A DNA stretch of 64,000 bases from a virus (IMGVR_UViG_3300044568_004364); one strand, 5' to 3'; numbered from the stretch's first letter, positions 353 through 13,577 are shown. Notes: generated from the sequence alone by a model not told the origin. Made by a program: numbers and translations.

Positions 353-1642
353 TTACGCTGCATTATTGTATGTAGAACCACCGATACCAGTCACATTAAA
401 TGTACGGAAGTATGGGTTAGCACCGTTTGTGCCAAGTGGATCACCACTTACACCACCAGCAAATGGATTTGCTACAAGACCATAACGTGTCTTGAATCCA
501 ATTTTTGGTTGGAATGTTTCAGGATCAACCGCACGAACCATAGTAAGTGGAACGTATGGGCAATAGAACATACCAGCGTCATACGCGTTTGTACCACGAT
601 AACCAACGGTTACATAATCAGCTGTGCTGAATGGGTCGATGAATACTTTCAAGCGGCCATTGATCATACCAGCAAATACGTTACCAGTGTCATCAACGTT
701 AAGGTTAGTTGCAAGTGCTGGAGCATAGTCAAGAACACCAGCTGCTGCAAGAGCAGATGCTACGTTGCTGCTGCAGATAACAACGTTACCTTTGCCACGA
801 CGTGTTGCTTTAGCAACTGCATTTGCTTCAACTTCAATTTGGAATAGAAGAGATTTGAATTTCTCAACTGCCCAACGGCCGTCTGCATCTTGGTCCATAT
901 CGAAAGAACCGTTAATACCGCCACTGACAGCTTTAACGTTAACAGTATCGATAACTTCACGGTTGATTTCAGCAAGGATTTCAACAGAAAGGATGTTAGC
1001 CAATTCTGCTTCAGCATCAAGTCCGTGAACAGACTTAAGGTCTTGAGCAAGTTCCATTGTGTATTCTGCTTTAAGAGCGCGTGTCTTAGCAGTAACGGTT
1101 GTCTTGTCAACAGTGAATCCCATGTTACCAAAACCACCACCAGCAGTTGTACGTCCAACTTGAACAGTACCAACAGTTGGATCTGGGTCAATGTAGCTGT
1201 TGTTTGTACCGTCGCCTGTAAGTGCTTCACCTTGTGCAGTTGTAACTGTACCAGAGAATGCAGTGATAGGCTTGTTGAAGAGTGCTTCAGCGGTATTTGC
1301 ACCAGCTGCGTTTTGATATTGGCTCTTCATAGCAAAGATCAAGCCTGTTGGCATGGTCATTGGCTGAACACCTGCAATATCGTAAGCAACGATATTTGGC
1401 ATTGCACGACGGACGAGGCTGATAAGAACTGGATCCCAGGTCTTGATAGCGCCGCCACCCGAGCCAATTACGTTGTCTTCTGTAATGAAGCCAGCGTGTG
1501 AACGCTCTTCAGCCAGTGCTCTTTCTTGGTTTTCAAGCAACACTGCAGTAATAGACTTACGGTAGTTGTCCTTGAACTTTGGGGCATCTTGAGCTTCCAA
1601 AATTGGAGCCCACTTCTTTTCTAGTTGTTCTGAATTAAACAT
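353..1642 (-). CDS. gp23: Major capsid protein (T4 gp23 family)
   Basis: Motifs KWAPILE, LVRRAMPN, GVQPMTMPTGLIFAMKSQY, RALKAEYTMELAQDLKSVHGLDAEAEL, YCPYVPL, FQPKIGFKTRYG. Confidence 0.98.
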   Translation of the reverse strand: MFNSEQLEKKWAPILEAQDAPKFKDNYRKSITAVLLENQERALAEERSHAGFITEDNVIGSGGGAIKTWDPVLISLVRRAMPNIVAYDIAGVQPMTMPTGLIFAMKSQYQNAAGANTAEALFNKPITAFSGTVTTAQGEALTGDGTNNSYIDPDPTVGTVQVGRTTAGGGFGNMGFTVDKTTVTAKTRALKAEYTMELAQDLKSVHGLDAEAELANILSVEILAEINREVIDTVNVKAVSGGINGSFDMDQDADGRWAVEKFKSLLFQIEVEANAVAKATRRGKGNVVICSSNVASALAAAGVLDYAPALATNLNVDDTGNVFAGMINGRLKVFIDPFSTADYVTVGYRGTNAYDAGMFYCPYVPLTMVRAVDPETFQPKIGFKTRYGLVANPFAGGVSGDPLGTNGANPYFRTFNVTGIGGSTYNNAA

Positions 1643-1698
1643 AATAGTTATTTTTATCTAGTTGTTGTTTTTTGTTTGGGGTTGGAACCTTTATCTCG

Positions 1699-2880
1699 TT
1701 ATTGAATATTTGCTGTATTAGCTTTATTCAAGCGGGATATTGCGGTTAAATATTTTTGCATTGCAGGTGAAACATTTGGTTGTGTTTCAGTTTCATTCTC
1801 TACAATAGTTGAGGTTGTAATGTACGAATCAGCGTCTGCTGTGCTTTCGGTTAGCGAATCATCTGAGGTTTGCTTTTTGATGTAAAATTCTTTAATGGTT
1901 TGCACTTTTTTACGGAATGCAGTTTCATTAGTAAACTCAATATCTTCAAGCAATTCTTTAAGCTTTTCAGCTTGTGTATCAGCTAGGTCAGATGTGGATT
2001 CTGCAATAATCTTTTCACGAGAGATTTCTTCAACCTTTTCAACCAAACCACTAAGGAGATTAAGCGATTCTGCAAGTTTAGATTCTGCAGCTTCTTTTTC
2101 TTCTTCGAGTTTAGCATATAGGTCAACCTTGCTCTCAGGTACTTCGATATAATTTTCTTCAAAGACTGTCTTCAATGATTGCATAAAGTTTTCTGCAATT
2201 TGAGTGCGTAAGCTACTCTCAACAGCAACTTTATTATCTTCAACCCAGCTCTCAACTGCATATGTTAGATAATTGTCAATCTTGTCAACAAGTTCTTCTT
2301 TAATAGTTTCCACTTCTTCAATAAGTGTAACTGCATAGCTTTCTTTAAGTGCTTCTTCAACTTCTTTGATTTTGCTCTTTACGGCAGCTTCAAAAATGAT
2401 GCTAGCTTTTTCTTTAAACTCTTCAGTTAAACCTTCTTCGCTTTCAACGAGACGAGAGATATCAGATGTGTCAATTGTGATTTCAGATTGGGTGCCTTCT
2501 TTCATGTCTTTATTTGCTTCATCCTCCATTTCTTCATCTTCCATTTCTTCGCCAAGGCCACTTGTAAGAATTCCGATTGCAGCACCATAGTCGCCGTCGG
2601 CTTTCTTAAGAATGCCTTCTGCAGTTGCTGTTGCTTTATCTTCATCATACTCGTCGCCGTGTGCAGCTTTCAATACGCTCTTAGCATATTCCATAAACTC
2701 TTTATCAGAGCTTACTTCAGCTTCTTCCATTGATTCGTCTTCTTTGCTTCCTTCGCAATTACCTTCAGCAATCTCAGATGTTTCCTGATCCTGCTCTAAG
2801 TTTTCGTCGAGAGAAAGTAATGTTTCTTCGCTGATATCTTCAATGATATCATCGGTGTCTTGTATATTTGTATTTGCCAT
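1699..2880 (-). CDS. gp22: Prohead core scaffolding protein
   Basis: Acidic coiled coil; LTEEFKEKASIIFEAAV, DKIDNYLTYAVESW motifs; between gp21 and gp23. Confidence 0.92.
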   Translation of the reverse strand: MANTNIQDTDDIIEDISEETLLSLDENLEQDQETSEIAEGNCEGSKEDESMEEAEVSSDKEFMEYAKSVLKAAHGDEYDEDKATATAEGILKKADGDYGAAIGILTSGLGEEMEDEEMEDEANKDMKEGTQSEITIDTSDISRLVESEEGLTEEFKEKASIIFEAAVKSKIKEVEEALKESYAVTLIEEVETIKEELVDKIDNYLTYAVESWVEDNKVAVESSLRTQIAENFMQSLKTVFEENYIEVPESKVDLYAKLEEEKEAAESKLAESLNLLSGLVEKVEEISREKIIAESTSDLADTQAEKLKELLEDIEFTNETAFRKKVQTIKEFYIKKQTSDDSLTESTADADSYITTSTIVENETETQPNVSPAMQKYLTAISRLNKANTANIQ

Positions 2881-2898
2881 ATATTACTTTTCTTTCTA

Positions 2899-3543
2899 TT
2901 AGAGTTTGGAGAGGAAATCATTCCAGATTTTTATTTGTGCTTCGGCAAGATTTGCAGAAGAAGTCTTTGTGATTTCTGTCTCATATTTTTCAAGCTGTTG
3001 CGCTTTCAATAAACCATTATCCCAGATCCATTCAACACCTTCCATGATACCATTTACAAAAGCAGATGGTGCACTTGGGTCTTGAACAATATCAACTGTT
3101 GACAACACGAAGTCGTCATTAACAAGGGTTTGGCCATTTTTATTTGCAACGGTTCCCATACCACGACTAGAGACGCCTAACTGACAACCACCTTCCAATA
3201 GTCCTTTCACAATTTTACCCATTGGTGTATCAAGTATAAGCGCCTTTCCAACAACATCATTACCGTTCCATTGGAGTTCAGTAATGCGATGCGAAACTTT
3301 ATCAAGGTTAATAGCAGGACCTTCAGGATGATTAAGCTCACCAACTGCACGTCCTTTATTAACATATTCGGTTACGTATGTACGTACCGCTTTTTCTAAA
3401 ACTGTTTTAGGATATATTCTACGATTACGGTTCATTTGTTCGGCTTGCATAAAGACACCATCAATGATGAATTTCTTTTCGCCATTTGCAGCAGCTTCTG
3501 CAATGTACCGTATATTCTCGGTATGTTCCGTAATTAATTTCAT
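2899..3543 (-). CDS. gp21: Prohead protease
   Basis: MKLITE, NRNRRIYP, GELNHP, GVSSRGMG, DIVQDPSAPSAFVNGIMEG. Confidence 0.97.
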   Translation of the reverse strand: MKLITEHTENIRYIAEAAANGEKKFIIDGVFMQAEQMNRNRRIYPKTVLEKAVRTYVTEYVNKGRAVGELNHPEGPAINLDKVSHRITELQWNGNDVVGKALILDTPMGKIVKGLLEGGCQLGVSSRGMGTVANKNGQTLVNDDFVLSTVDIVQDPSAPSAFVNGIMEGVEWIWDNGLLKAQQLEKYETEITKTSSANLAEAQIKIWNDFLSKL

Positions 3544-3558
3544 AGTTACTATAATGTT

Positions 3559-3566
3559 TATTTATA
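3559..3566 (-). promoter_or_regulatory. T4-type late promoter TATAAATA (gp21)
   Basis: Exact gp55 consensus upstream of gp21. Confidence 0.8.
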
Positions 3567-3603
3567 AAAAATCATTTTTCAACAAGGCATTTATATTTTG
3601 CAA

Positions 3604-3678
3604 TTATGGAACTGCAGGGTAATTGGTTGTCTTTACATATGCAGCTGTAATTTTTGCTGCAGTAAAACCGTATATCAT
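3604..3678 (-). CDS. Putative 24-aa ORF MIYGFTAAKITAAYVKTTNYPAVP
   Basis: Start overlaps the upstream stop (TAATG coupling); too short to confirm. Confidence 0.3.
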   Translation of the reverse strand: MIYGFTAAKITAAYVKTTNYPAVP

Positions 3679-3986
3679 TATCCTTTACGATGTGTAAGCT
3701 GAAATTTAACACTAGTAGTACCAGTTGATCCAGTTATTTGCACTGCTAACTTTTTACTTAAAGGAGACACGACGAAATGTAATGATGATGAAGTCATCGT
3801 CAATACAGTTCCAGAAGAGTCTCTAAATGGAGCAAATACATCAGAGCCATCAACATAGCCTACTGTTGCAGTGCAGCTGCCAAATGTGCCTGATACATAC
3901 ATCACATAATCACTGCCAGTAAATGGGGCATCTAATGTGTACGTATTGTTTGAAGTTATAAGAGTATTTTCAACGTATGGTATCAT
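3678..3986 (-). CDS. Hypothetical beta-rich virion-associated protein
   Basis: 102-aa ORF with TATAAATA at 3992-3999; lies in the head gene cluster. Confidence 0.65.
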   Translation of the reverse strand: MIPYVENTLITSNNTYTLDAPFTGSDYVMYVSGTFGSCTATVGYVDGSDVFAPFRDSSGTVLTMTSSSLHFVVSPLSKKLAVQITGSTGTTSVKFQLTHRKG

Positions 3987-4010
3987 AGTGGTATTTATAA
4001 AAATATATCT

Positions 4011-4172
4011 TTATGATATATCAGTTTCGTTATAGATGCTTGATGTCAACTCAACTTTTTTAATGTCGAGTACTGTGCGCACCTTATCTTGTATAATCGC
4101 GTTAAATGCAACATTTGCCGCAAGGTCATCGCCGGTTACTATATTTTGTATTAATTCTTTTGTGTCTTCCAT
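4011..4172 (-). CDS. gp67: Prohead core protein (gp67-like), 53 aa
   Basis: Manually translated MEDTKELIQNIVTGDDLAANVAFNAIIQDKVRTVLDIKKVELTSSIYNETDIS; directly downstream of portal. Confidence 0.7.
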   Translation of the reverse strand: MEDTKELIQNIVTGDDLAANVAFNAIIQDKVRTVLDIKKVELTSSIYNETDIS

Positions 4173-4184
4173 ATATTTAATAAT

Positions 4185-5699
4185 TTACATTTCTTCTTCG
4201 CCTTCAGGCACCTCAGGAACAGTTGTTCCTTCAGATGCAATTTCGGCATTCATTTTTTCAATATCATCATCGCTTTGATTTAAGATATTACTACGTACAT
4301 ATTTTTCGCTATAATACTTACCGATATAACCTGATACAGATTCTAACATCGCTAGGCGCTCTTTCATGATTTCAAAATCTTTAAGCTCGCTAAAGAAGTT
4401 ATCTTCAATATAGTCAATATTAATATTTTCACGTATACTTTCCCAGTCACCTTCTGTTATGATTCCTTTTAGTAATAGTTGTAGCCGCAGCGCGTCAACA
4501 AATAAAACTGAGAATTTCTTACGTAAACGGTTAATGAACTTTTGGTACTTAACTTCTTCACGTGATATTTCACTTGCACGACCTACATTAAACATAGTCT
4601 CGCCTTCAAGACGATTGACTGGAATATTTAGCGAACGATATAGTTTCTTTTGGAAAAAGACTACATCTTCAATCTGACTAAGATTTTCGCCACCTGGCAG
4701 CGTTGTGATTTCTGTACCACGGCCACCTTCACGACGCGGTAACCAAAAGTCTTCAAGCATACTCATGCTCTTACGGTCATCGCGTATTTCGCCAGTGTTA
4801 GCATCATATACTAACTTGTTGCGATACTTTGCCATAATACCTTGCACATATTCTTCAGCTTTACCTTTTGGTAGGTTACCAACGTCAATATAGAAAATAC
4901 GACGCTCAGGTGCACGTGCTATACGATAGATAACCAAAGAGTCTTCCATCATACGCAATTGATTTACAAGTTTTACGCTCTTATGTAGGTATGATATTGA
5001 ATACTTTCCGCTTTCGTCCAATATACCAGATGGTACATATACAACGGTATTAGGATCAATCTTAACTCCGCCATTGGTTGACGAATTGCCAAAATCATCG
5101 GCATAAAGAAAATATTCTGAAGCAAGTTCTGTAACCTTTATACCTGTTGCTTTATCAACTTTAGTAGTAACCTCTTTAATTTTTCTAATCTTAAGAGGAT
5201 CAATTGCACGTATTTCTTTAATGCCTTCTTTTGGTTTTTTAGTGTCAACCATTAGATGGAAATATAACTTGCCGTCAATATACCAACGACGAAAAATATC
5301 ATAACCGTTATAGTTAAATGATAAGAGCTTTAAGATTATATCAAATTCTTCACGTATCTTTTTCTTAATACTTTCAGGCTGATCCAAGTTATCCATTATA
5401 ATATTAACTGGACTACCGTCACTATCTGAAACAATTGAAGCATTAACAATATCAGCAATTGCGGCATCGCACTCTGGTTGTGATGCTGCGCTACGACATT
5501 TTAAGATAGTATCCTTTTCATTTGTTAGCATTGCTCCATCAATATCAAGAACCTGCCCATAATAACCAGCAGCATTACTTGACGTTAAAACGGAAGTACC
5601 ATCGTTTTCAATGGGGGTTGAAAACGATGGTATAATTGAATCCGGTGAAGAACCCTTCTTATCTATTAATTTTGATATTTCATAGCCAAACAGCTTCAT
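4185..5699 (-). CDS. gp20: Portal protein
   Basis: NQLRMMEDSLVIYRIARAPERRIFYIDVGNLPKGKAEEY, MLEDFWLPRREGGRGTEITTLPGG; late promoter 5707-5714. Confidence 0.98.
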   Translation of the reverse strand: MKLFGYEISKLIDKKGSSPDSIIPSFSTPIENDGTSVLTSSNAAGYYGQVLDIDGAMLTNEKDTILKCRSAASQPECDAAIADIVNASIVSDSDGSPVNIIMDNLDQPESIKKKIREEFDIILKLLSFNYNGYDIFRRWYIDGKLYFHLMVDTKKPKEGIKEIRAIDPLKIRKIKEVTTKVDKATGIKVTELASEYFLYADDFGNSSTNGGVKIDPNTVVYVPSGILDESGKYSISYLHKSVKLVNQLRMMEDSLVIYRIARAPERRIFYIDVGNLPKGKAEEYVQGIMAKYRNKLVYDANTGEIRDDRKSMSMLEDFWLPRREGGRGTEITTLPGGENLSQIEDVVFFQKKLYRSLNIPVNRLEGETMFNVGRASEISREEVKYQKFINRLRKKFSVLFVDALRLQLLLKGIITEGDWESIRENINIDYIEDNFFSELKDFEIMKERLAMLESVSGYIGKYYSEKYVRSNILNQSDDDIEKMNAEIASEGTTVPEVPEGEEEM

Positions 5700-6297: not shown

Positions 6298-7983
6298 TTA
6301 GGCACCAATCTCATTAAATTGAATACCGCTGCGTGATGCAACAAAGTTAAGCGTGATATAGTTAATTGAGCGCGAAGGCTTAATGTAAATATCGGCGATA
6401 AAACGATTAGTATCAATAACTTGCGGAGTATTATTTGTCTCATCGCATACTATACGATAATCAGTAACACCACGGCGTGATTGAACATCTCTTAAGAGTG
6501 GCTCAATCGTATTGACAAATGCGCTACGAGTAAATTCATCGTTTAATTCAAACAATTGGAATTTAGCTGCAATACCACATGCACGTTGTAGGCTGTTAAA
6601 TAGGCGGCGTACATTAATACGATCAAATGCGCTTGCACGTGATTGGCCTGTCTTATCTCCTAGAAGTACAATACCTTGGCCTGCTGTATTTACAATAGGA
6701 TTGATATTTGTTGCATACAGTTCATCACGATCAACTTGTACTGGATTGTATGCAAGTTTGGTTACACCGCGTAATTGACCACGATTATAGCCTGCTGGTG
6801 AGAACCATGCATCCGCTACACTATCGGTATATGCGCATAGGCCTGCTATATGTCCGCATGCTGGAATCCATTTGTACTCATCTGCATACTTGTTATATAC
6901 ATAAACTGGTGTGCTATCAAACACAACATAACTGCTTGGATCACTAATTGCAGCTTTTGCCGCAATTACTGCATTCTTTTTAGCAGTTTCAGATGTTTGG
7001 GTATATAGATTCAAAGGCGCAGACAGGAATGCCATACAATCTTTACGTCCTACCACAACTCCATTCAATTTGACATTCACTGTAGTATCAGATGTGAATG
7101 CTTCTGCAAAGAGCAAATTGATATCAACAGTTTCGATATCAGCAAATATATTTAATGCTGTAACAACATTAGCTGCAACACGTGTACCGTTAGCACCAGC
7201 ATTAAATCCATATATGCCTGTGCCAGCCAACGTATATGTGCTGCTTGCTAGTGTACGAACAATTGCAGGATCTCCAGCAAATACGTATGATGAGCCGTTA
7301 TTAAGTACATTGACAAAGTAATTGGATGCTCCGCTTACAGTTTTTGCATTTGCATTTAATGATAACCCTTGGAATGTTTCTAATACTGCACCCTTAACTC
7401 CAGTAAATTCTCCATTCTTATCAAATACAGCTATATGTATTTCGTCATTAGTGTAAACTGTTGTGCTTACGCTGCTTGCCCATGTTGTTGTACTAGGAGC
7501 AAGGTCAAAATATTGTTTACGCTCTGCTGCTAAGGTTGCTTCATTGTTTGCATGAAACAATTTAACTTCAAGCGTGTTCCCAATAGCGCCTGGGCAGCGT
7601 GCATAGAATGCATCAAGTAATGTAGCAATTTTTAAATCGTAATCTTCTTTATTCTTGATAAGCACACCAGGACCAGTTGTATATCCAGATTCGCCAGCTG
7701 CATTAAGAGCACTAGCTCCAACACAACGCACAACCTTTAATGAATTTCCATATTTTAGGAAACTCTCAGCGGTCAAGAATGACTCTGCATTCGGGTCGCC
7801 TGCTTGTTTGGGTGTCCCAAATATTTCACCCAAGTTTTTCTCAGATGATATATTAGTAATTTCGTCAACAGGACCCCAGTTAAAATGTCCAACGTATGCT
7901 CCTATTGATGCAGATGTTGGTTGTGCTACCGTTGTTAAATCAGTTTCAGTGATTTGAACGCCTACGCTTTGTAAATATGCCAT
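6298..7983 (-). CDS. gp18: Tail sheath protein
   Basis: WFSPAGYNRG, SAFDRINVRRLF, FELNDEFTR, CDETNNTPQVID, IYIKPSRSINYI; late promoter 8055-8062. Confidence 0.97.
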   Translation of the reverse strand: MAYLQSVGVQITETDLTTVAQPTSASIGAYVGHFNWGPVDEITNISSEKNLGEIFGTPKQAGDPNAESFLTAESFLKYGNSLKVVRCVGASALNAAGESGYTTGPGVLIKNKEDYDLKIATLLDAFYARCPGAIGNTLEVKLFHANNEATLAAERKQYFDLAPSTTTWASSVSTTVYTNDEIHIAVFDKNGEFTGVKGAVLETFQGLSLNANAKTVSGASNYFVNVLNNGSSYVFAGDPAIVRTLASSTYTLAGTGIYGFNAGANGTRVAANVVTALNIFADIETVDINLLFAEAFTSDTTVNVKLNGVVVGRKDCMAFLSAPLNLYTQTSETAKKNAVIAAKAAISDPSSYVVFDSTPVYVYNKYADEYKWIPACGHIAGLCAYTDSVADAWFSPAGYNRGQLRGVTKLAYNPVQVDRDELYATNINPIVNTAGQGIVLLGDKTGQSRASAFDRINVRRLFNSLQRACGIAAKFQLFELNDEFTRSAFVNTIEPLLRDVQSRRGVTDYRIVCDETNNTPQVIDTNRFIADIYIKPSRSINYITLNFVASRSGIQFNEIGA

Positions 7984-8073: not shown

Positions 8074-9465
8074 TTACAAGCCTTTCCACTCGTTAATTGA
8101 TTCCATTTGCTCTCTATAATGAGCCATGCTAGGCGTAAGATCATTTTCATTATGAGAATTAATAATACCAAACGGCGGTAAGTCATCCTCCATCTCTCGT
8201 ATCTTTTCGCTATAGAGCAAGTCTTTAAGCTGTATATTACTCATGCCACCAAATGCGTCGGTGCTAACAAACCATGCAAACATAACAAGGTTCATTACGC
8301 TATCATCATGTGCAATGCCGCGTGCCGCATAACTATCTCCTTTTGGCTCAAAGCTGCTAAGTTCTGCAATTGTATTTGCATCGTATATCATTAACTTACC
8401 TTGCTCAATCAAGTCTTTTAGATTGCTGCAACCAATACGTTTAACTCGTTTGGTCATAGTGACACCAATGCCACTACTCTTTATACTGCTTTGCACAAAG
8501 ACGTTATCATATTCGTAATCATAATATATCGCATTACATACAACTTGTCCTGCATCGTTATTTTCAACAACCACAAGTGCATTACCGTATGACTTAGCAG
8601 CACGTATAATATATTCTGGGTACATTAACGGCGATACATTGTTATTACGATATGTACACACCTGCTTAAATGTTTCGCCAGAAATATCAAATACAGAAAA
8701 TGTACTATAGTCCTGCCCACGCCCTTTGCTTACATCTACCGTCAAGATATAGTCATGACCTTCAATAGGTTGCTCATAGTAGAGTATATCATATTGATTA
8801 CGTATCGGATCACGCGCTTGTAATCCAAGAAGCGCATCAGATGATATAAGTGTCTGCGAACTACCGATAAAAGAAACTTCAAACTCTTGCTTAAATTGTA
8901 ATTCACTGCTATTGGCAATAGTCTGACGCTTCCATGCTTCATCACGCCCAGGTACATCTTGCCATTTAATCGTGAATGGTTTAAATTCATTTGAACGTTG
9001 AATTGCACCTTCCCATAATTTATAGAACATATTGCCTACACCATTAGGTGTACTTGTAATAATAACCTTTGTATCTTTACCAGAACTAATTACAGGATAT
9101 GTACTCGTATAAAATTCATTTGCTTTATGCACAAACGCGAACTCATCAAGAAAGATACAATTATGACTGACTACACTGTTGGTATAATACGCATGTGTAT
9201 CTTCTACCTCTAATAAGTCATATACCTTTTCAGATTTAACATTTCTAATATCGATGATTTTAATATCACCAAATAATATATCCCCAACATTTAGAAATGA
9301 ACATGGTATGTAAGTAAATCCATCCTGACATAAAAATTCATGTTCAGGTGTACATTTAATATGTTCGCCATTATCAAATTGTACGAATAATAATTTTTCA
9401 GCTATCCCTTGGTCAAGTATAGCTTCAAATTTTTTAAATCCATTATGTGTTAAAACTTCAATCAT
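8074..9465 (-). CDS. gp17: Terminase large subunit, C-terminal part: 102-aa C-intein + Walker B and nuclease domains
   Basis: After ...YYTNSVVSHN the sequence resumes CIFLDEFAFV, TSTPNG, VDVSKGRGQDYS, HDDSVM. Confidence 0.95.
   Translation of the reverse strand: MIEVLTHNGFKKFEAILDQGIAEKLLFVQFDNGEHIKCTPEHEFLCQDGFTYIPCSFLNVGDILFGDIKIIDIRNVKSEKVYDLLEVEDTHAYYTNSVVSHNCIFLDEFAFVHKANEFYTSTYPVISSGKDTKVIITSTPNGVGNMFYKLWEGAIQRSNEFKPFTIKWQDVPGRDEAWKRQTIANSSELQFKQEFEVSFIGSSQTLISSDALLGLQARDPIRNQYDILYYEQPIEGHDYILTVDVSKGRGQDYSTFSVFDISGETFKQVCTYRNNNVSPLMYPEYIIRAAKSYGNALVVVENNDAGQVVCNAIYYDYEYDNVFVQSSIKSSGIGVTMTKRVKRIGCSNLKDLIEQGKLMIYDANTIAELSSFEPKGDSYAARGIAHDDSVMNLVMFAWFVSTDAFGGMSNIQLKDLLYSEKIREMEDDLPPFGIINSHNENDLTPSMAHYREQMESINEWKGL
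9160..9465 (-). mobile_element. C-terminal fragment of split intein 2
   Basis: Block B CTPEH, block F KVYDL, block G SHN followed by +1 Cys; own ATG overlaps the upstream stop (ATGA 9462-9465). Confidence 0.9.
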
Positions 9466-10403
9466 ATTTTAGTGCGATTAACCCATTTTTCAGGTTGTTC
9501 ACCTATATTAAAATAACCACGTTCAGATGTGTTTTCTGGATTAACATAATATTTTTTACCTTTATTTTTTGCAGATTTACCCTTTTTTGCCGATGACATT
9601 TTTAATTTACAATCATCGCTTCTTGTCATACCGCGATGTTTTTCTGCAGTCTTTTTAATTTTTTCAGGATTTTTATTAATCTTATCAACATGCTCTTTTG
9701 ATTTTTTAATACCCGTCAAACCAGCACTTATATTATTACAATGTTCTTTTGTTTTCTTTACTCCTTTTAATTTTTCTGATATGATTTTACCGGTTGCTTT
9801 TCTAGTGTCGGGTAATGAAGCAATCATTTGTATGCGTTTCATATAAACATTCACTGCCGCTTGTTGATCATCAGTATCAACAAATTTAATTGGCTTTTCA
9901 GAGTTACCGCAATCGCATATTAATTTAATTCTAGCAGCATAGTTATTTGTATCTTCATCATAACCTAATTTGTTTATTGCATCTTCCAGTGTTTCAAAAA
10001 TGCGGCCATCATCATGAATAATTTTTTTACCAGTCCCAGAATGTTTTCCAACTTTAGCTTCACGTAATTTTTCTTTTGTTTCTTTGGAGTGTGTCTTACC
10101 GTAAAAGCCATTATTTGGGCCGTGTAATACTAGTATGTTTCCGCCTTCCGAAAGATTATATGTATCTTCACGCAAGGTAAAATCTTTATTAACAATACGT
10201 CTTTCTTCATTTTCTGCATCAGCTTTATTATCAAAAACTGATAATATTTCTTTTTTAAAATTAGCGATGCCATACTTTTCTATAGCTCTTTTTATAAGTT
10301 TACCACTGCCCATATAGCCATCATTTAAATCATTAGTTGCATGATAGCCAACATAAATTTTATTGTTTATTAGATTTGTTATTTTATAGACAGTGTAATG
10401 CAT
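9462..10403 (-). mobile_element. GIY-YIG (Seg-like) homing endonuclease with NUMOD3-type repeats, in frame with N-intein 2
   Basis: MHYTVYKITNLINNKIYVGYH...YMGSG...FKKEIL...YNLSEGG; FYGKTHSKETKEKL; internal late promoter 10430-10437. Confidence 0.9.
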
Positions 10404-12341
10404 AATTTCTTTCTCGATGAATTTACTTTTATTTATAAAATCATCAATTTCAGCATAGTAAATATTATCATTTATGTTAACACAAATCTTAGCATCTCCA
10501 GTGACACAATTCATACTCAAGCCACGAATGCTGCTACCGCTTGTGGCTGCCGCAATAATTTCGCTGTTATTACTAAAGAGTATGTTACCTTTATTTAATA
10601 CCTTACACCCAGGCTGTAGGAAGAATGGTAAGTTTTCCAACATCAGCGTAATACGTGATAACATCTCACGTGCCGTTGCACCTTTGTTTGCAAGTATACC
10701 TATCTTTTTATTTGCGTTAAAGATTGCATAATGAAGGAGCCATGCGACACTTGTAATCGAATTGTGTGACAGAATATCGTTTGTGTAAAATCGGTGATCA
10801 GTAAAATCTACCCCAAGATCATACATCTCAACCTCTTTACCACATCTCTGAACTCCAACAACTTTGGAACACCCATCTTTTGTTTGTATAACAGATCCTT
10901 CTTTTAAATCTTTAACATAGACATTATCAAATTCTTCATTAAATAAAATATGGTTATCAGCACAGCGTAGATATTTCCCGCATTCTGTTTTTACCTCCCA
11001 GATGGTATATGGTATAGTTTTATGCGATTGTTTTAAAGGTTGAAATCCGCTATCAGTTTCAACCACGAAGCCGAAGCCCTCGAAGGATTCTATGAATTTT
11101 TTAGTTGATGGCAGTTGTCGAAATGCCACCTCGACATCGCTGATGGATCTCCGATCTTTCCGCAGTGCGGACACTGTGCCTTCTTTCTTTTTCTCGCCAT
11201 GCTTTTTATATTTTCTATATGTTCCTTCGTAAACTTCCTCCCTTTGAGACGTTCTGAAAGTTTGTTCTTTGTTTCCGCTGATGTTACCTTCCCCTTTCCA
11301 GCCTTTGAGAGTTTCTTCTTCGTTTCCTCGGATGTTACCCTTCCCGTGTTCGGTGATACATAATCCGGATCCGCGTGAAGTTTCCTCAGGCCTTTTGATA
11401 TATTTTCTTTGTGTTCCTCGGATTGAGCGTATCCACGTAATGACTCTGAATTTGTTTTCCGGTTTTTCATCCTCTCCCGAAACTTTGTCTCCCCCCAAAT
11501 AGATTTTATTTTCTTGGAGATATTCTTTTTGGATTCTTCCGAATGATTTTTGTTTAGCATGCCCCTTGGATGAACCTCGTGAGTTTTTCCATAAAAGGGA
11601 TTTTTCTCTCCACTGTTTTCCTCCGATAAAACATTTATGAAGTTGGTTCGAGCATTTTCGTATAAACGTGAGGATTTTATTTTTATGCCATCTCGTGTGT
11701 GCATCATCATGTGAAGGGCATAAACCATCTTCTTCCATTCTGGGCTGCACTTTGGAAACATCTTCACTAATAAAAGATGAGCGATAAAATGCTCTCTTAA
11801 AGTTAATGTCACTAGGTTCTCTTCTAAATTGTTTCCACCACACCCTTTTGGAAAAATATGATGCCTCTCCCCAGAGTTTAACAAACAGCGCTTGCGCTTC
11901 TCCATCAGGCAAAAATAGGTCTTTGAATACTTGTTCTTTAGGCAGGTCATGTTTATATTTATAAAACAATGACTTCTGAAGCGTACTTAATGCATAAAAT
12001 ATTTCGTGAACTAGTGATATTTTTGCTCGCAACGGAGGGCCATCAAGAAACTTGATGGTAATCTCTGTTTCCCCGACACTGCATTTCCCGCTTTGGCGAC
12101 ATGCAAGGATAATGGTAAAACGATTATCCGAAAAATGTTTTACCATTTTTTCTTGATAACCGCGCAGCTTAAATGGCACTAGTCCATGATCTAAGCTAAT
12201 AACCTTTACGTACTTTTCGGCAAAGTAACCTACATCAGCCATGCAGCGACGATATTCATTAACTTCATGCGCCGTGAAACTTTGCTGTACACCATCACGC
12301 TTGATATAAATGTTTCCATTATAGGAATCTGGTGTTGTCAT
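9462..12341 (-). CDS. gp17: Terminase large subunit, N-terminal part: extein + intein 1 + extein + N-intein 2 fused to GIY-YIG endonuclease
   Basis: T4 gp17 N-terminus (YNGN, LRGYQ, RQSGK Walker A); exteins join as RQSGK|SITSVAWLLHY and SSIRGLSMN|CIFLDEF; spliced product 86+84+361 = 531 aa. Confidence 0.93.
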   Translation of the reverse strand: MTTPDSYNGNIYIKRDGVQQSFTAHEVNEYRRCMADVGYFAEKYVKVISLDHGLVPFKLRGYQEKMVKHFSDNRFTIILACRQSGKCSVGETEITIKFLDGPPLRAKISLVHEIFYALSTLQKSLFYKYKHDLPKEQVFKDLFLPDGEAQALFVKLWGEASYFSKRVWWKQFRREPSDINFKRAFYRSSFISEDVSKVQPRMEEDGLCPSHDDAHTRWHKNKILTFIRKCSNQLHKCFIGGKQWREKSLLWKNSRGSSKGHAKQKSFGRIQKEYLQENKIYLGGDKVSGEDEKPENKFRVITWIRSIRGTQRKYIKRPEETSRGSGLCITEHGKGNIRGNEEETLKGWKGEGNISGNKEQTFRTSQREEVYEGTYRKYKKHGEKKKEGTVSALRKDRRSISDVEVAFRQLPSTKKFIESFEGFGFVVETDSGFQPLKQSHKTIPYTIWEVKTECGKYLRCADNHILFNEEFDNVYVKDLKEGSVIQTKDGCSKVVGVQRCGKEVEMYDLGVDFTDHRFYTNDILSHNSITSVAWLLHYAIFNANKKIGILANKGATAREMLSRITLMLENLPFFLQPGCKVLNKGNILFSNNSEIIAAATSGSSIRGLSMNCVTGDAKICVNINDNIYYAEIDDFINKSKFIEKEIMHYTVYKITNLINNKIYVGYHATNDLNDGYMGSGKLIKRAIEKYGIANFKKEILSVFDNKADAENEERRIVNKDFTLREDTYNLSEGGNILVLHGPNNGFYGKTHSKETKEKLREAKVGKHSGTGKKIIHDDGRIFETLEDAINKLGYDEDTNNYAARIKLICDCGNSEKPIKFVDTDDQQAAVNVYMKRIQMIASLPDTRKATGKIISEKLKGVKKTKEHCNNISAGLTGIKKSKEHVDKINKNPEKIKKTAEKHRGMTRSDDCKLKMSSAKKGKSAKNKGKKYYVNPENTSERGYFNIGEQPEKWVNRTKI
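10404..10508 (-). mobile_element. Short (35-aa) N-terminal fragment of split intein 2
   Basis: Block A CVTGDAKICV...AEIDDF inserted just before the Walker B motif. Confidence 0.85.
10430..10437 (-). promoter_or_regulatory. Late promoter inside N-intein 2 for the GIY-YIG gene
   Basis: Exact TATAAATA 26 nt upstream of ATG at 10403. Confidence 0.7.
11090..11950 (-). CDS. HNH homing endonuclease (Mob-like) with NUMOD3-type repeats and C-terminal Zn ribbon, nested out of frame in intein 1
   Basis: ERHHIFPKGCGGNNLEENLVTLTLREHFIAHLLL; NPFYGKTH; HSEESKKNIS repeats; CPHCGK...RWHFDNC; late promoter 11956-11963. Confidence 0.9.
   Translation of the reverse strand: MTCLKNKYSKTYFCLMEKRKRCLLNSGERHHIFPKGCGGNNLEENLVTLTLREHFIAHLLLVKMFPKCSPEWKKMVYALHMMMHTRDGIKIKSSRLYENARTNFINVLSEENSGEKNPFYGKTHEVHPRGMLNKNHSEESKKNISKKIKSIWGETKFRERMKNRKTNSESLRGYAQSEEHKENISKGLRKLHADPDYVSPNTGRVTSEETKKKLSKAGKGKVTSAETKNKLSERLKGRKFTKEHIENIKSMARKRKKAQCPHCGKIGDPSAMSRWHFDNCHQLKNS
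11956..11963 (-). promoter_or_regulatory. Late promoter inside intein 1 for the HNH gene
   Basis: Exact TATAAATA 5 nt upstream of the HNH ATG. Confidence 0.75.
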
Positions 12342-12796
12342 TATATTTCAACTGTTTCAGTTGGAGCGCTCTGTAGCAGCTTTTGTAACTCTGAAGTAGT
12401 GCCGACAAATATTGCATTATTTGTAGTGCCGCCACCACCAGAATTGTTTGGCTTCTGCTGTGTTTCATCTTGTATAATTTTCTTACGCTCTTTCTGTAGC
12501 GTTAGGAGCTGACCGTTAATTTCAGCTGCAGTTTTAATCATACCGGCCAAGACTTCAAATGCGCGCGGATGTTCTGCATCACTTGCTAGTGCATGCATTG
12601 TACCAATTGCCTCATCACTTGTATCAATAAGTTTCTTTATGTGCGCTCTTGCGTATGCATAGTCTTCTTCAGCATCAATTACTATTTCAGCGTGTGATGG
12701 TGCAGGATCCTTACCAGATTCAATAACCATTTCCTTTTTTACTGGAGCTAGGTTTGATTGGAGCGATGCTAATATACTATCTTTATCCTTTTTCAT
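12341..12796 (-). CDS. gp16: Terminase small subunit
   Basis: DYAYAR, EHPRAFEV, NNAIFVGTTSELQKLL; upstream of gp17 with TAATG coupling; start placed at MKKDKD (uncertain). Confidence 0.9.
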   Translation of the reverse strand: MKKDKDSILASLQSNLAPVKKEMVIESGKDPAPSHAEIVIDAEEDYAYARAHIKKLIDTSDEAIGTMHALASDAEHPRAFEVLAGMIKTAAEINGQLLTLQKERKKIIQDETQQKPNNSGGGGTTNNAIFVGTTSELQKLLQSAPTETVEI

Positions 12797-12800
12797 AATC

Positions 12801-13577
12801 TTAAGGTTCGTCATCAAACCCGTAGGTTGTAACTACGGTATAATCTTCAGGTGTGTCATTCTCAGGATCACCAAGAGATACATTTACGGTGTCAACTGCA
12901 GTTGATGTTGCTGTCTTAGCACCGTCATAAAAGTTAACATCAACATATTTAATAATTTTTCCAGGTGCACTTTGTATACCTCTAAACTTTACTTTAATAT
13001 CAAAATCTAATGTATACATGATTGTGCGTCGTGTATTTGCAAAGTCACCTTCATAGTCATCTTGGAATGAAGTACCCGTCAACATAAATGGTACGTCAGT
13101 AATGCTATCAGGACCTTCAAGATCCTTTACAGCAACCGTATATTCTGGCGTAAAGTAGGGTATAATTTGTTCAAAGATTTGCAGCGCATCATCTTGATAA
13201 CGCGCCATAATATTCAACTGCATACCTATGCGATATGGCGTTGCGCTATAGACACGTGTGCGAGATTCATTATCTGCGCCGCTGCTGTATAGCGTGCTAT
13301 TAAGACGATTTAGTTTTGATGTAGAGTCATAACTTATTGATGTAATATCAAAACTCATGCGCGGCAGATTCATTGCAATGTCGCCATTCTCTTCATTAAT
13401 TTGATTTGCAAGACGTGCCAAGAATTTTTGACGAGGCCCATATGATATAGGTACACGCTGTATACCCGTCATTTTGCCGTTAACTTTTTTTGCAATACTA
13501 ATGTTATTAAAGAGTGTACCAAATACGGCAACAATCTTTTTTAGGTTTGCGTTATAATAGTAAGAATCGCTTAACAT
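12801..13577 (-). CDS. gp15: Tail sheath terminator/stabilizer
   Basis: FGTLFNNI, VPISYGPRQKFL, LPRMSFDI, QIFEQIIPYFTP, DDYEGDF. Confidence 0.93.
   Translation of the reverse strand: MLSDSYYYNANLKKIVAVFGTLFNNISIAKKVNGKMTGIQRVPISYGPRQKFLARLANQINEENGDIAMNLPRMSFDITSISYDSTSKLNRLNSTLYSSGADNESRTRVYSATPYRIGMQLNIMARYQDDALQIFEQIIPYFTPEYTVAVKDLEGPDSITDVPFMLTGTSFQDDYEGDFANTRRTIMYTLDFDIKVKFRGIQSAPGKIIKYVDVNFYDGAKTATSTAVDTVNVSLGDPENDTPEDYTVVTTYGFDDEP

Follow-up and report, generated by a model that had tools for sequence, protein, structure and literature searches.

How can a full-length large terminase (TerL) be made from a gene that places its Walker A and Walker B motifs on two different polypeptides? 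The question is raised by gene 17 of the T4-like phage IMGVR_UViG_3300044568_004364, of which one stretch of 64,000 nucleotides (nt), hereafter the window, was analysed. Two inteins interrupt the gene, and the second of them (intein 2) is divided between two open reading frames (ORFs) in an unusual manner: its N-terminal piece (IntN2) runs in frame into a GIY-YIG homing endonuclease, and its C-terminal piece (IntC2) opens the ORF that follows. We consider it likely that a split intein of the AceL/GOS type, positioned directly before the Walker B strand, has been invaded by a GIY-YIG cassette, and that TerL would be restored by trans-splicing.

Gene 17 consists of two overlapping ORFs

The ORF listing shows a minus-strand T4-type late module comprising gp16, the small terminase (12817..12341), gp17, and gp18, the tail sheath (7983..6298). 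Translation shows that gene 17, which encodes TerL, consists of two ORFs on this strand and not of one, namely ORF A (12341..9462, minus strand, 959 amino acids (aa)) and ORF B (9465..8074, minus strand, 463 aa). The features of both are given below, where a slash marks a splice or insertion point.

12084..12341, minus strand: first part of the TerL N-extein (ORF A residues 1-86), with Walker A (...CRQSGK) at its end; from translation, and matching the beginning of intein-free TerL genes such as L006 at 80% identity.
10761..12083, minus strand: intein 1, ORF A residues 87-527, at the P-loop site GK/S; N-piece CSVGETEITIKF..., C-piece end ILSHN/SITS.
11090..11950, minus strand: HNH and NUMOD3 homing endonuclease gene P0003, 286 aa, in the +1 frame inside intein 1; from Pfam and PHROG.
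10509..10760, minus strand: TerL middle extein, ORF A residues 528-611, SITSVAWLL...SSIRGLSMN; 94% identical to intein-free alleles.
10434..10508, minus strand: core of IntN2, covering intein 2 residues 1-25 (CVTGDAKICVNINDNIYYAEIDDFI), of which Cys1 adjoins the splice junction; from alignment, complex model and mini-intein alleles.
10404..10433, minus strand: linker of ten codons, NKSKFIEKEI, read from alignments as the promoter and 5' leader of the endonuclease cassette in the TerL frame.
10430..10437, minus strand: TATAAATA, a late promoter motif of the T4 type that precedes the endonuclease ATG by 26 nt; from the motif scan.
9465..10403, minus strand: GIY-YIG homing endonuclease of the I-TevI/Seg type, 313 aa, starting MHYTVYKITN, with its stop codon TGA at 9462-9464; from PHROG 314.
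9462..9465, minus strand: ATGA overlap of the ORF A stop (TGA) and the ORF B start (ATG); from the sequence, with the same overlap in relatives.
9160..9465, minus strand: IntC2, ORF B residues 1-102, with T39-x-x-H42, D83 and H101-N102; from the match to PDB 6DSL_B and from Pfam.
8074..9159, minus strand: TerL C-extein, ORF B residues 103-463 and stop, with the +1 Cys, Walker B (IFLDE), the remainder of the ATPase and the RNaseH-like nuclease domain; Terminase_6N E 6.8e-12, Terminase_6C E 3.4e-12, 80% identical to intein-free TerL.

ORF A thus passes from TerL residues 1-86 through intein 1 (87-527) and 84 further aa of TerL to 35 residues that begin CVTGDAKIC (residues 612-646, 10508..10404), and from there into the 313-aa nuclease, with no stop codon between Cys612 and the endonuclease end. 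On the plus strand the four bases at 9462-9465 read tcat, i.e., ATGA on the coding strand. ORF B opens with MIEVLTHNGF, and its residue 102 closes ...VVSHN, after which CIFLDEFAFVHK follows. Walker A (SGK/S) is carried by ORF A and Walker B (IFLDE) by ORF B, and the lengths of the three extein pieces (86+84+361) add up to 531 aa, which matches the span of TerL genes without inteins. Pfam divides Terminase_6N over both ORFs, and it places Terminase_6C and the intein splicing domain in ORF B, and NUMOD3 together with a sub-threshold GIY-YIG domain in the tail of ORF A. An earlier sequence-only reading had described a 35-aa stretch after SSIRGLSMN that continues in frame into a 313-aa GIY-YIG nuclease and stops, an ATGA-coupled next gene with a 102-aa C-intein ending SHN/CIFLDEF, and Walker motifs on different polypeptides; the translations of ORF A and ORF B agree with each of these to the base. 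Its proposal that the 531-aa TerL would need one splicing step within ORF A and one between the ORFs is supported by the anatomy. A megablast search of the 4.4-kb region against GenBank phages gave no match.

Intein 2 resembles the AceL-TerL and GOS-TerL inteins

The best PDB match of IntC2 is chain B of 6DSL (E 2.8e-11, residues 2-103). This chain is CatC, the consensus of the atypically split inteins AceL-TerL and GOS-TerL (PDB 6DSL). Intein 2 has the nucleophiles of a class 1 intein, Cys612 of ORF A as Cys1 and Cys103 of ORF B at +1, which are invariant in related loci, and block B (T39-P-E-H42), block F (D83) and the terminal H101-N102 of ORF B are also invariant columns in the IntC alignment. 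An IntN2 of at most 35 aa (about 25 of them functional) and an IntC2 of 102 aa, on separate polypeptides, fit an atypical split, and the split position in the window is equivalent to that of the AceL and GOS TerL inteins, which PMC13014065, in its summary of them, places after the first helix (S2). When the flanks are joined they read GLSMN-CIFLDEFAF, identical at every position to the intein-free allele L047 (at +1, V or L is found in the other intein-free alleles), and the junction peptide predicted from ligated TerL is GLSMNCIFLDEFAFVHK.

The end of IntN2 was located from alleles and from a structural model. Contiguous mini-inteins occupy the same site in L091-93 and L096, with IntN joined to IntC where the endonuclease sits in the window, and those of L091 and L096 align with IntN2 up to intein residue 25. 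In the model of the complex between IntC2 and IntN2, the confident IntN2 contacts also end at intein residue 25. This model reached an ipSAE of 0.65, versus 0.01 for the best of 3 controls, with a contact agreement between runs of at least 81% and a partner pLDDT of at least 61, and it passed a mark that 58 of 80 solved complexes and 2 of 110 mismatched pairs also attain. The earlier claim of an atypically split intein with a 35-aa N-fragment therefore holds in one part and not in the other: the 6DSL match and the splicing residues agree with the type, while only about 25 of the 35 residues are intein by alignment and model contacts, and residues 26-35 are read as promoter and leader.

These features support the assignment of intein 2 to the naturally, atypically split class 1 inteins of the AceL/GOS-TerL type, and splicing would be predicted from it. 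Some results weigh against this assignment. IntC2 scores 33.7 bits (E 3.8e-8) for the Pfam family Intein_splicing, which is below the curated cut-off of 35.8, and the pass of the complex model may reflect a memory of 6DSL; because a like complex is solved there, the pass is to be read as likeness and not as proof of binding by this copy. A PDB search with IntN2 alone, which is too short to score, returned chance matches only, and when the IntC query was lengthened to include extein sequence, the extein part did not align to 6DSL.

The intein halves could also be association domains that do not splice, with TerL acting as a non-covalent enzyme of two chains. Split enzymes are known to work unspliced in T4-like phages, for example the NrdA of Aeh1, which is split by an endonuclease without an intein (as cited in PMC2677866). 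However, all residues of the splicing chemistry are invariant across lineages that have diverged to 43-58% identity in the intein, about 140 intein residues would separate the extein from the Walker B strand, and for mycobacteriophages the presence of TerL inteins on the pentamer was judged incompatible with assembly (PMC5050341). We therefore regard an unspliced TerL as improbable.

The layout is widespread among uncultured phages

The same in-frame layout was found in the IMG/VR contigs L004, L005, L084-87, L089-90, L094-95 and L097, which represent about seven lineages and have IntC pieces 43-58% identical to IntC2 of the window. In these contigs IntN is in frame with a GIY-YIG endonuclease that ends in a stop codon, and IntC lies on the next ORF, mostly with an ATGA overlap (the 4-nt overlap is shared by L004, L005, L084-87 and L089-90). 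When the middle extein, IntN and GIY-YIG endonuclease were used together as one query against 5.8 billion proteins, 108 of the 120 best clusters covered at least 90% of it, at identities of 39-79%. Coverage of this extent implies one polypeptide across both junctions. The list of the best 120 is biased to fused forms because these also match the extein, and this counts against taking the proportion at face value. Together with the contigs, the search confirmed that the layout is real, conserved and widespread among uncultured phages.

The recurrence also bears on whether a frameshift from assembly or sequencing accounts for the break at 9462-9465, or a programmed -1 frameshift joins the two frames; in either case the product would be a contiguous intein with an internal GIY-YIG domain. 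ORF B does lie in the -1 frame of ORF A, and the junction of L004 has an A-run (AAA AAA TGA) where a slip is conceivable. However, the stop/start overlap recurs in independent contigs from many samples, and in every one of them the IntC gene has retained an ATG. Since the two-ORF layout is found in independent IMG/VR contigs, the frame break is not a one-off error, and we hold a frameshift of any kind to be extremely improbable. Programmed -1 frameshifting at the ATGA was rejected as a candidate: there is no shared slippery sequence (ACT AAA ATA TGA in the window, GTT AAA TTA TGA in L005).

The endonuclease cassette is read in the TerL frame

The endonuclease matches PHROG 314 (homing endonuclease, E 2.2e-41), and a profile of eight relatives matches the DNA-binding domain of I-TevI (1I3J, E 6.2e-8). 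In its DNA-binding tail, NUMOD3 scores 26.8 bits in Pfam (cut-off 20.4) and is followed by an I-TevI-like region, and the invariant E64, E67, R78 and N83/N89 in the endonuclease alignment are candidate catalytic residues. The catalytic domain of I-TevI (1LN0) is matched weakly by the same profile (E 0.14), in an alignment of VYKITN...KIYVGYH with IYQIKN...KVYVG of I-TevI in which the GIY motif begins at the endonuclease Met1. PF01541 and PF19835 are on record for many of the endonuclease relatives. The window copy itself scores 17-21 bits for the Pfam families GIY-YIG and SegE_GIY-YIG, below their cut-offs of 22.6-25, which speaks against its placement in this family.

The motif TATAAATA at 10437..10430 falls within the codons for F-I-N-K of the IntN tail. 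It is kept at the DNA level in nine of ten related loci, where it is followed by a GAG/GAGG run and then, after ~7 nt, by the ATG. Because the motif and the run are conserved there, IntN residues 26-35 are read as promoter and leader, in the TerL frame, belonging to an endonuclease cassette of the usual free-standing kind. The register in use is the only one in which the cassette would not terminate the upstream gene, since TATAAATAA has TAA in the other two registers. With its own promoter motif, Shine-Dalgarno-like run and ATG, the cassette is expected to give two endonuclease forms, a read-through fusion and a free protein, and the IntN-endonuclease fusion is probably one of the two and not the sole form. 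Across the whole window the motif scan found 23 matches to TATAAATA versus 8.6 expected, and all but one (22) are on the minus strand. This pattern fits a long late-gene block, and two of the motifs lie directly upstream of the two endonuclease genes within gene 17.

Whether the in-frame join is itself of use to the element is a separate matter. It may be a neutral by-product, where the GIY-YIG endonuclease would act solely as a free protein, expressed from the promoter, ribosome-binding site and ATG of its cassette, with the fusion tolerated and trans-splicing still taking place. The conserved TATAAATA, GAG/GAGG run and ATG within the cassette favour such neutrality, as does the retention of the endonuclease Met in nine of ten loci; the free-standing relatives P0072 and P0121 begin at the same Met, and the catalytic strand of I-TevI begins at residue 1-6, so that an N-terminal extension is unneeded. 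Free drift of the frame, however, would make out-of-frame or stop-bearing close relatives common, whereas the linkers among lineages come in at least five lengths (10, 11, 13, 14 and 16 codons) that are all multiples of three, in frame and stop-free, down to 39% identity. P0024, moreover, is without the INKSK/TATAAATA linker and still in frame, and in L090 the endonuclease ATG is replaced by ACG (4054-4056), where the close relative L089 has ATG. The nuclease of L090 may thus exist only as an IntN fusion, or it may be decaying.

The variation in linkers, P0024 and L090 argue for a constraint on the frame. On the other side of the balance, the in-frame state could in part be a frozen accident; the chance of a stop-free in-frame landing is roughly 1 in 9. 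Overall, we give the neutral by-product a substantial chance, although one somewhat short of even. That the join has been selected is a more speculative proposal, which we consider unlikely. In this case, the IntN-GIY-YIG chain would stay on IntC as the two-chain equivalent of an endonuclease-bearing intein, and the HINT domain would aid targeting (as in PI-SceI) or tie the dose and timing of the nuclease to terminase synthesis. If this were true, the family would represent a living intermediate from free-standing endonuclease genes to intein domains.

Intein 1 stays open across an out-of-frame endonuclease gene

Within the two-step splicing scheme, the cis step depends on the frame of intein 1 staying open. 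This intein is inserted at GK/S, the classic P-loop intein site (cf. TerL1-a, PMC5050341), and comprises a short N-piece, about 290 codons without a family match, and a C-piece that is 40-46% identical to IntC1 of L004, L089-92 and L094. Its middle part is the read-through, from the +1 frame, of the complete HNH-NUMOD3 gene P0003 (Pfam NUMOD3, E 5.7e-14; PHROG 655, homing endonuclease, E 2.3e-43), which has TATAAATA at 11956-11963, 5 nt before the HNH ATG. The host frame contains 0 stops over 287 codons versus ~22 expected, and zero was reached in 0 of 20000 codon shuffles. The intein assigned to the cis step is itself invaded by an endonuclease, and it is open across an out-of-frame HNH gene.

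Independent parallels were seen in other contigs. In L094/95, a 934-aa ORF reads through an out-of-frame gene for a DUF559/Vsr-like nuclease, and in L098 there is a read-through of an out-of-frame HNH gene at the Walker B site. Intein 1 is truly split in L004 and L089-93, where an IntN1 of 36-45 aa ends in a stop and a nuclease gene separates it from IntC1. TerL is spread over three ORFs, with both inteins truly split, in L004 (843-3927), L089 (1906-5004) and L090. The nuclease genes in the first gap differ: that of L089 has a T5orf172 domain, and that of L004 matches no family. In L093 (2688-3064), the IntC1 frame changes between alignment residues 86 and 91, which could be a sequencing error or a broken copy.

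The insertion site differs from those of AceL-TerL and T4-type inteins

Intein 2 is inserted between GLSMN and CIFLDE, directly before the Walker B strand. According to PMC9421956, which cites Thiel 2014, EFE and CEFL serve as flanks of the engineered AceL-TerL intein, and they correspond to QEFE/C, a site further downstream in TerL that is uninterrupted in the window (KQEFEVSFIGSS). On the flanks as that citing paper gives them, allelism with the AceL-TerL site was rejected (SMN/CIFLDE here versus EFE/CEFL). The difference in insertion site makes the intein of the window a relative, and not an allele, of AceL-TerL and GOS-TerL. Compared with the catalogued TerL intein sites, as the sequence-only reading had suggested, the intein thus retains its kinship with the AceL/GOS type through the 6DSL match, while its site is another one. 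The T4-type site DE/C was also rejected for the window intein, as the two sites are six residues apart. Related inteins of cultured phages are found at DE/C, where that of JK32 is split and those of Vibrio phage VmeM-32 and Nitratidesulfovibrio phage SRB7757 are contiguous.

Other TerL sites are occupied in the relatives. Short IntN pieces ending in a stop are found at QEFE/C in L087 (5307-5693), L091 (4846-5220), L092, L093 and L099 (3629-4636), and at this site the GIY-YIG gene of L099 is separate, as in the classical fractured layout. With multiple sites occupied, some relatives need two or three splicing events per TerL. The record of Vibrio phage vB_VmeM-32 (L002, KU160494.1, 1-3216) begins inside TerL, and the other end of the record must hold the N-terminal part. 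Its annotated coding sequence (CDS) starts with an IntC1-like piece (MNDKFLEINPC...ASHN/TT) and has, in addition, a contiguous mini-intein at DE/C.

Proposed route to full-length TerL

From the ORF anatomy, homology, conservation, promoter motif and distribution described above, we predict the translation products, splicing and nuclease activity of this locus as follows. A GIY-YIG cassette would have invaded the TerL intein in the loop after the first helix, bringing along a late promoter (TATAAATA), a ribosome-binding run and an ATG, and would have settled in the register that reads these signals through as ...FINKSKFIEKEI-M.... With this register, ribosomes from the TerL start would make the N-extein, IntN (~25 aa), linker and GIY-YIG endonuclease as one chain, and transcripts from the internal promoter could yield free endonuclease. 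The 3' end of the cassette would supply both the stop and the ATG (ATGA) for the IntC-C-extein chain, whose translation would probably proceed by termination-reinitiation. IntN would then dock into a partly folded IntC and complete the HINT fold, and trans-splicing chemistry would be carried out by Cys1, T-x-x-H, Asp, His-Asn and Cys+1. Trans-splicing and the removal of intein 1 would give the 531-aa TerL with the junction GLSMN-CIFLDEF, and leave as a by-product an IntN-GIY-YIG chain held to IntC. The endonuclease would presumably cut nuclease-free or intein-free TerL alleles of co-infecting relatives, by which the element would spread.

Significance for split inteins and their evolution

The main value of this system lies in being a source of split inteins with short IntN pieces and an evolutionary intermediate. 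Among natural atypically split inteins, few have an N-piece that is within reach of peptide synthesis (AceL-TerL, GOS-TerL, VidaL and PolB16 are those named), and such inteins are wanted for protein semisynthesis and labelling. The family of the element is large, diverse and untapped: it comprises over 100 protein clusters and has relatives at four sites in TerL. All stages of the gene-breaking model of 2009 are seen among the relatives of this single gene, from a contiguous mini-intein, through a nested out-of-frame nuclease across which the host frame is kept open and a half-split form fused on the 5' side, to complete splitting. Annotations currently given to genes of this kind are 'group I intron endonuclease', 'hypothetical protein' or a pair of distinct 'terminase' CDSs. 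Cultured RB49-like coliphages, which have an analogous layout, make the biology testable in laboratory E. coli.

Comparison with known systems

In these RB49-like phages (Krischvirus; JK32, kaaroe, G2494, TB34, SAP, phiS and GoldenSnicker) and in Shewanella phage Thanatos-2, TerL is also encoded in two overlapping ORFs. As in the window, a short IntN is in frame with a nuclease, and IntC, 36% identical to IntC2, opens the second ORF. Unlike in the window, the nuclease is a TnsA-like PD-(D/E)xK enzyme, the site is DE/C, six residues downstream, and the overlap measures 20 nt. The locus of Shigella phage JK32 (L001) is found at 1242-4353 of MK962753.1. GenBank annotates these split TerL genes only as two terminase CDSs, our literature search found no paper describing the RB49-like split TerL, and a paper of 2024 stated that no inteins had been reported from coliphages (PMC11162368).

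Inteins of actinobacteriophages with out-of-frame or antisense homing endonucleases have been described by Gosselin, Arsenault and Gogarten (bioRxiv 10.1101/2025.01.02.630785). There, free-standing endonuclease genes invade TerL inteins with the frame left intact, which makes them the closest match to intein 1 and to the read-through forms of L094/95 and L098. Unlike intein 2, they are contiguous, with the endonuclease at the canonical position, and their nucleases are EndoVII-like, Vsr-like or LAGLIDADG enzymes.

AceL-TerL and GOS-TerL, as summarised in PMC11766414 and PMC13014065, share with intein 2 a T4-like TerL as host and the class 1 residues Cys1 and Cys+1. Those summaries give an IntN of 25-37 aa and an IntC of about 100-115 aa for this type, against about 25+10 and 102 in the window. 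In contrast to these inteins as so summarised, the window intein is located at N/CIFLDE, and its IntN continues into the endonuclease with no stop in between.

In the fractured genes of Dassa et al. 2009 (PMC2677866), IntN ends in a stop and is followed by 27-51 non-coding bases and an endonuclease gene that overlaps into the IntC gene; one gp17 locus in that study, with a C-part of 122 aa, was noted as 'fractured at an unusual point'. The window layout is similar, with all parts on one strand and an endonuclease between the halves (GIY-YIG or Vsr-like in that study) which, through an overlap at its 3' end, provides the ATG of the IntC gene, and it is consistent with the earlier statement that fractured genes can hold an endonuclease gene between the halves. 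The overlap is 4 nt in the window versus 6-69 bp in the fractured genes, and the spacer of 30 nt is read in frame and stop-free, which gives a half-fused form. In the set of papers searched, we found no description of such an in-frame join between IntN and an endonuclease. In its insertion site and its stop-free 5' join, the window layout differs from the descriptions of both AceL/GOS and fractured genes, and it apparently adds an undescribed twist to them. The model in PMC2677866 includes a route (IIIa), predicted but unobserved there, in which loss of the endonuclease flanks re-creates an in-frame intein domain, and the arrangement in the window matches this route completed on the 5' side only.

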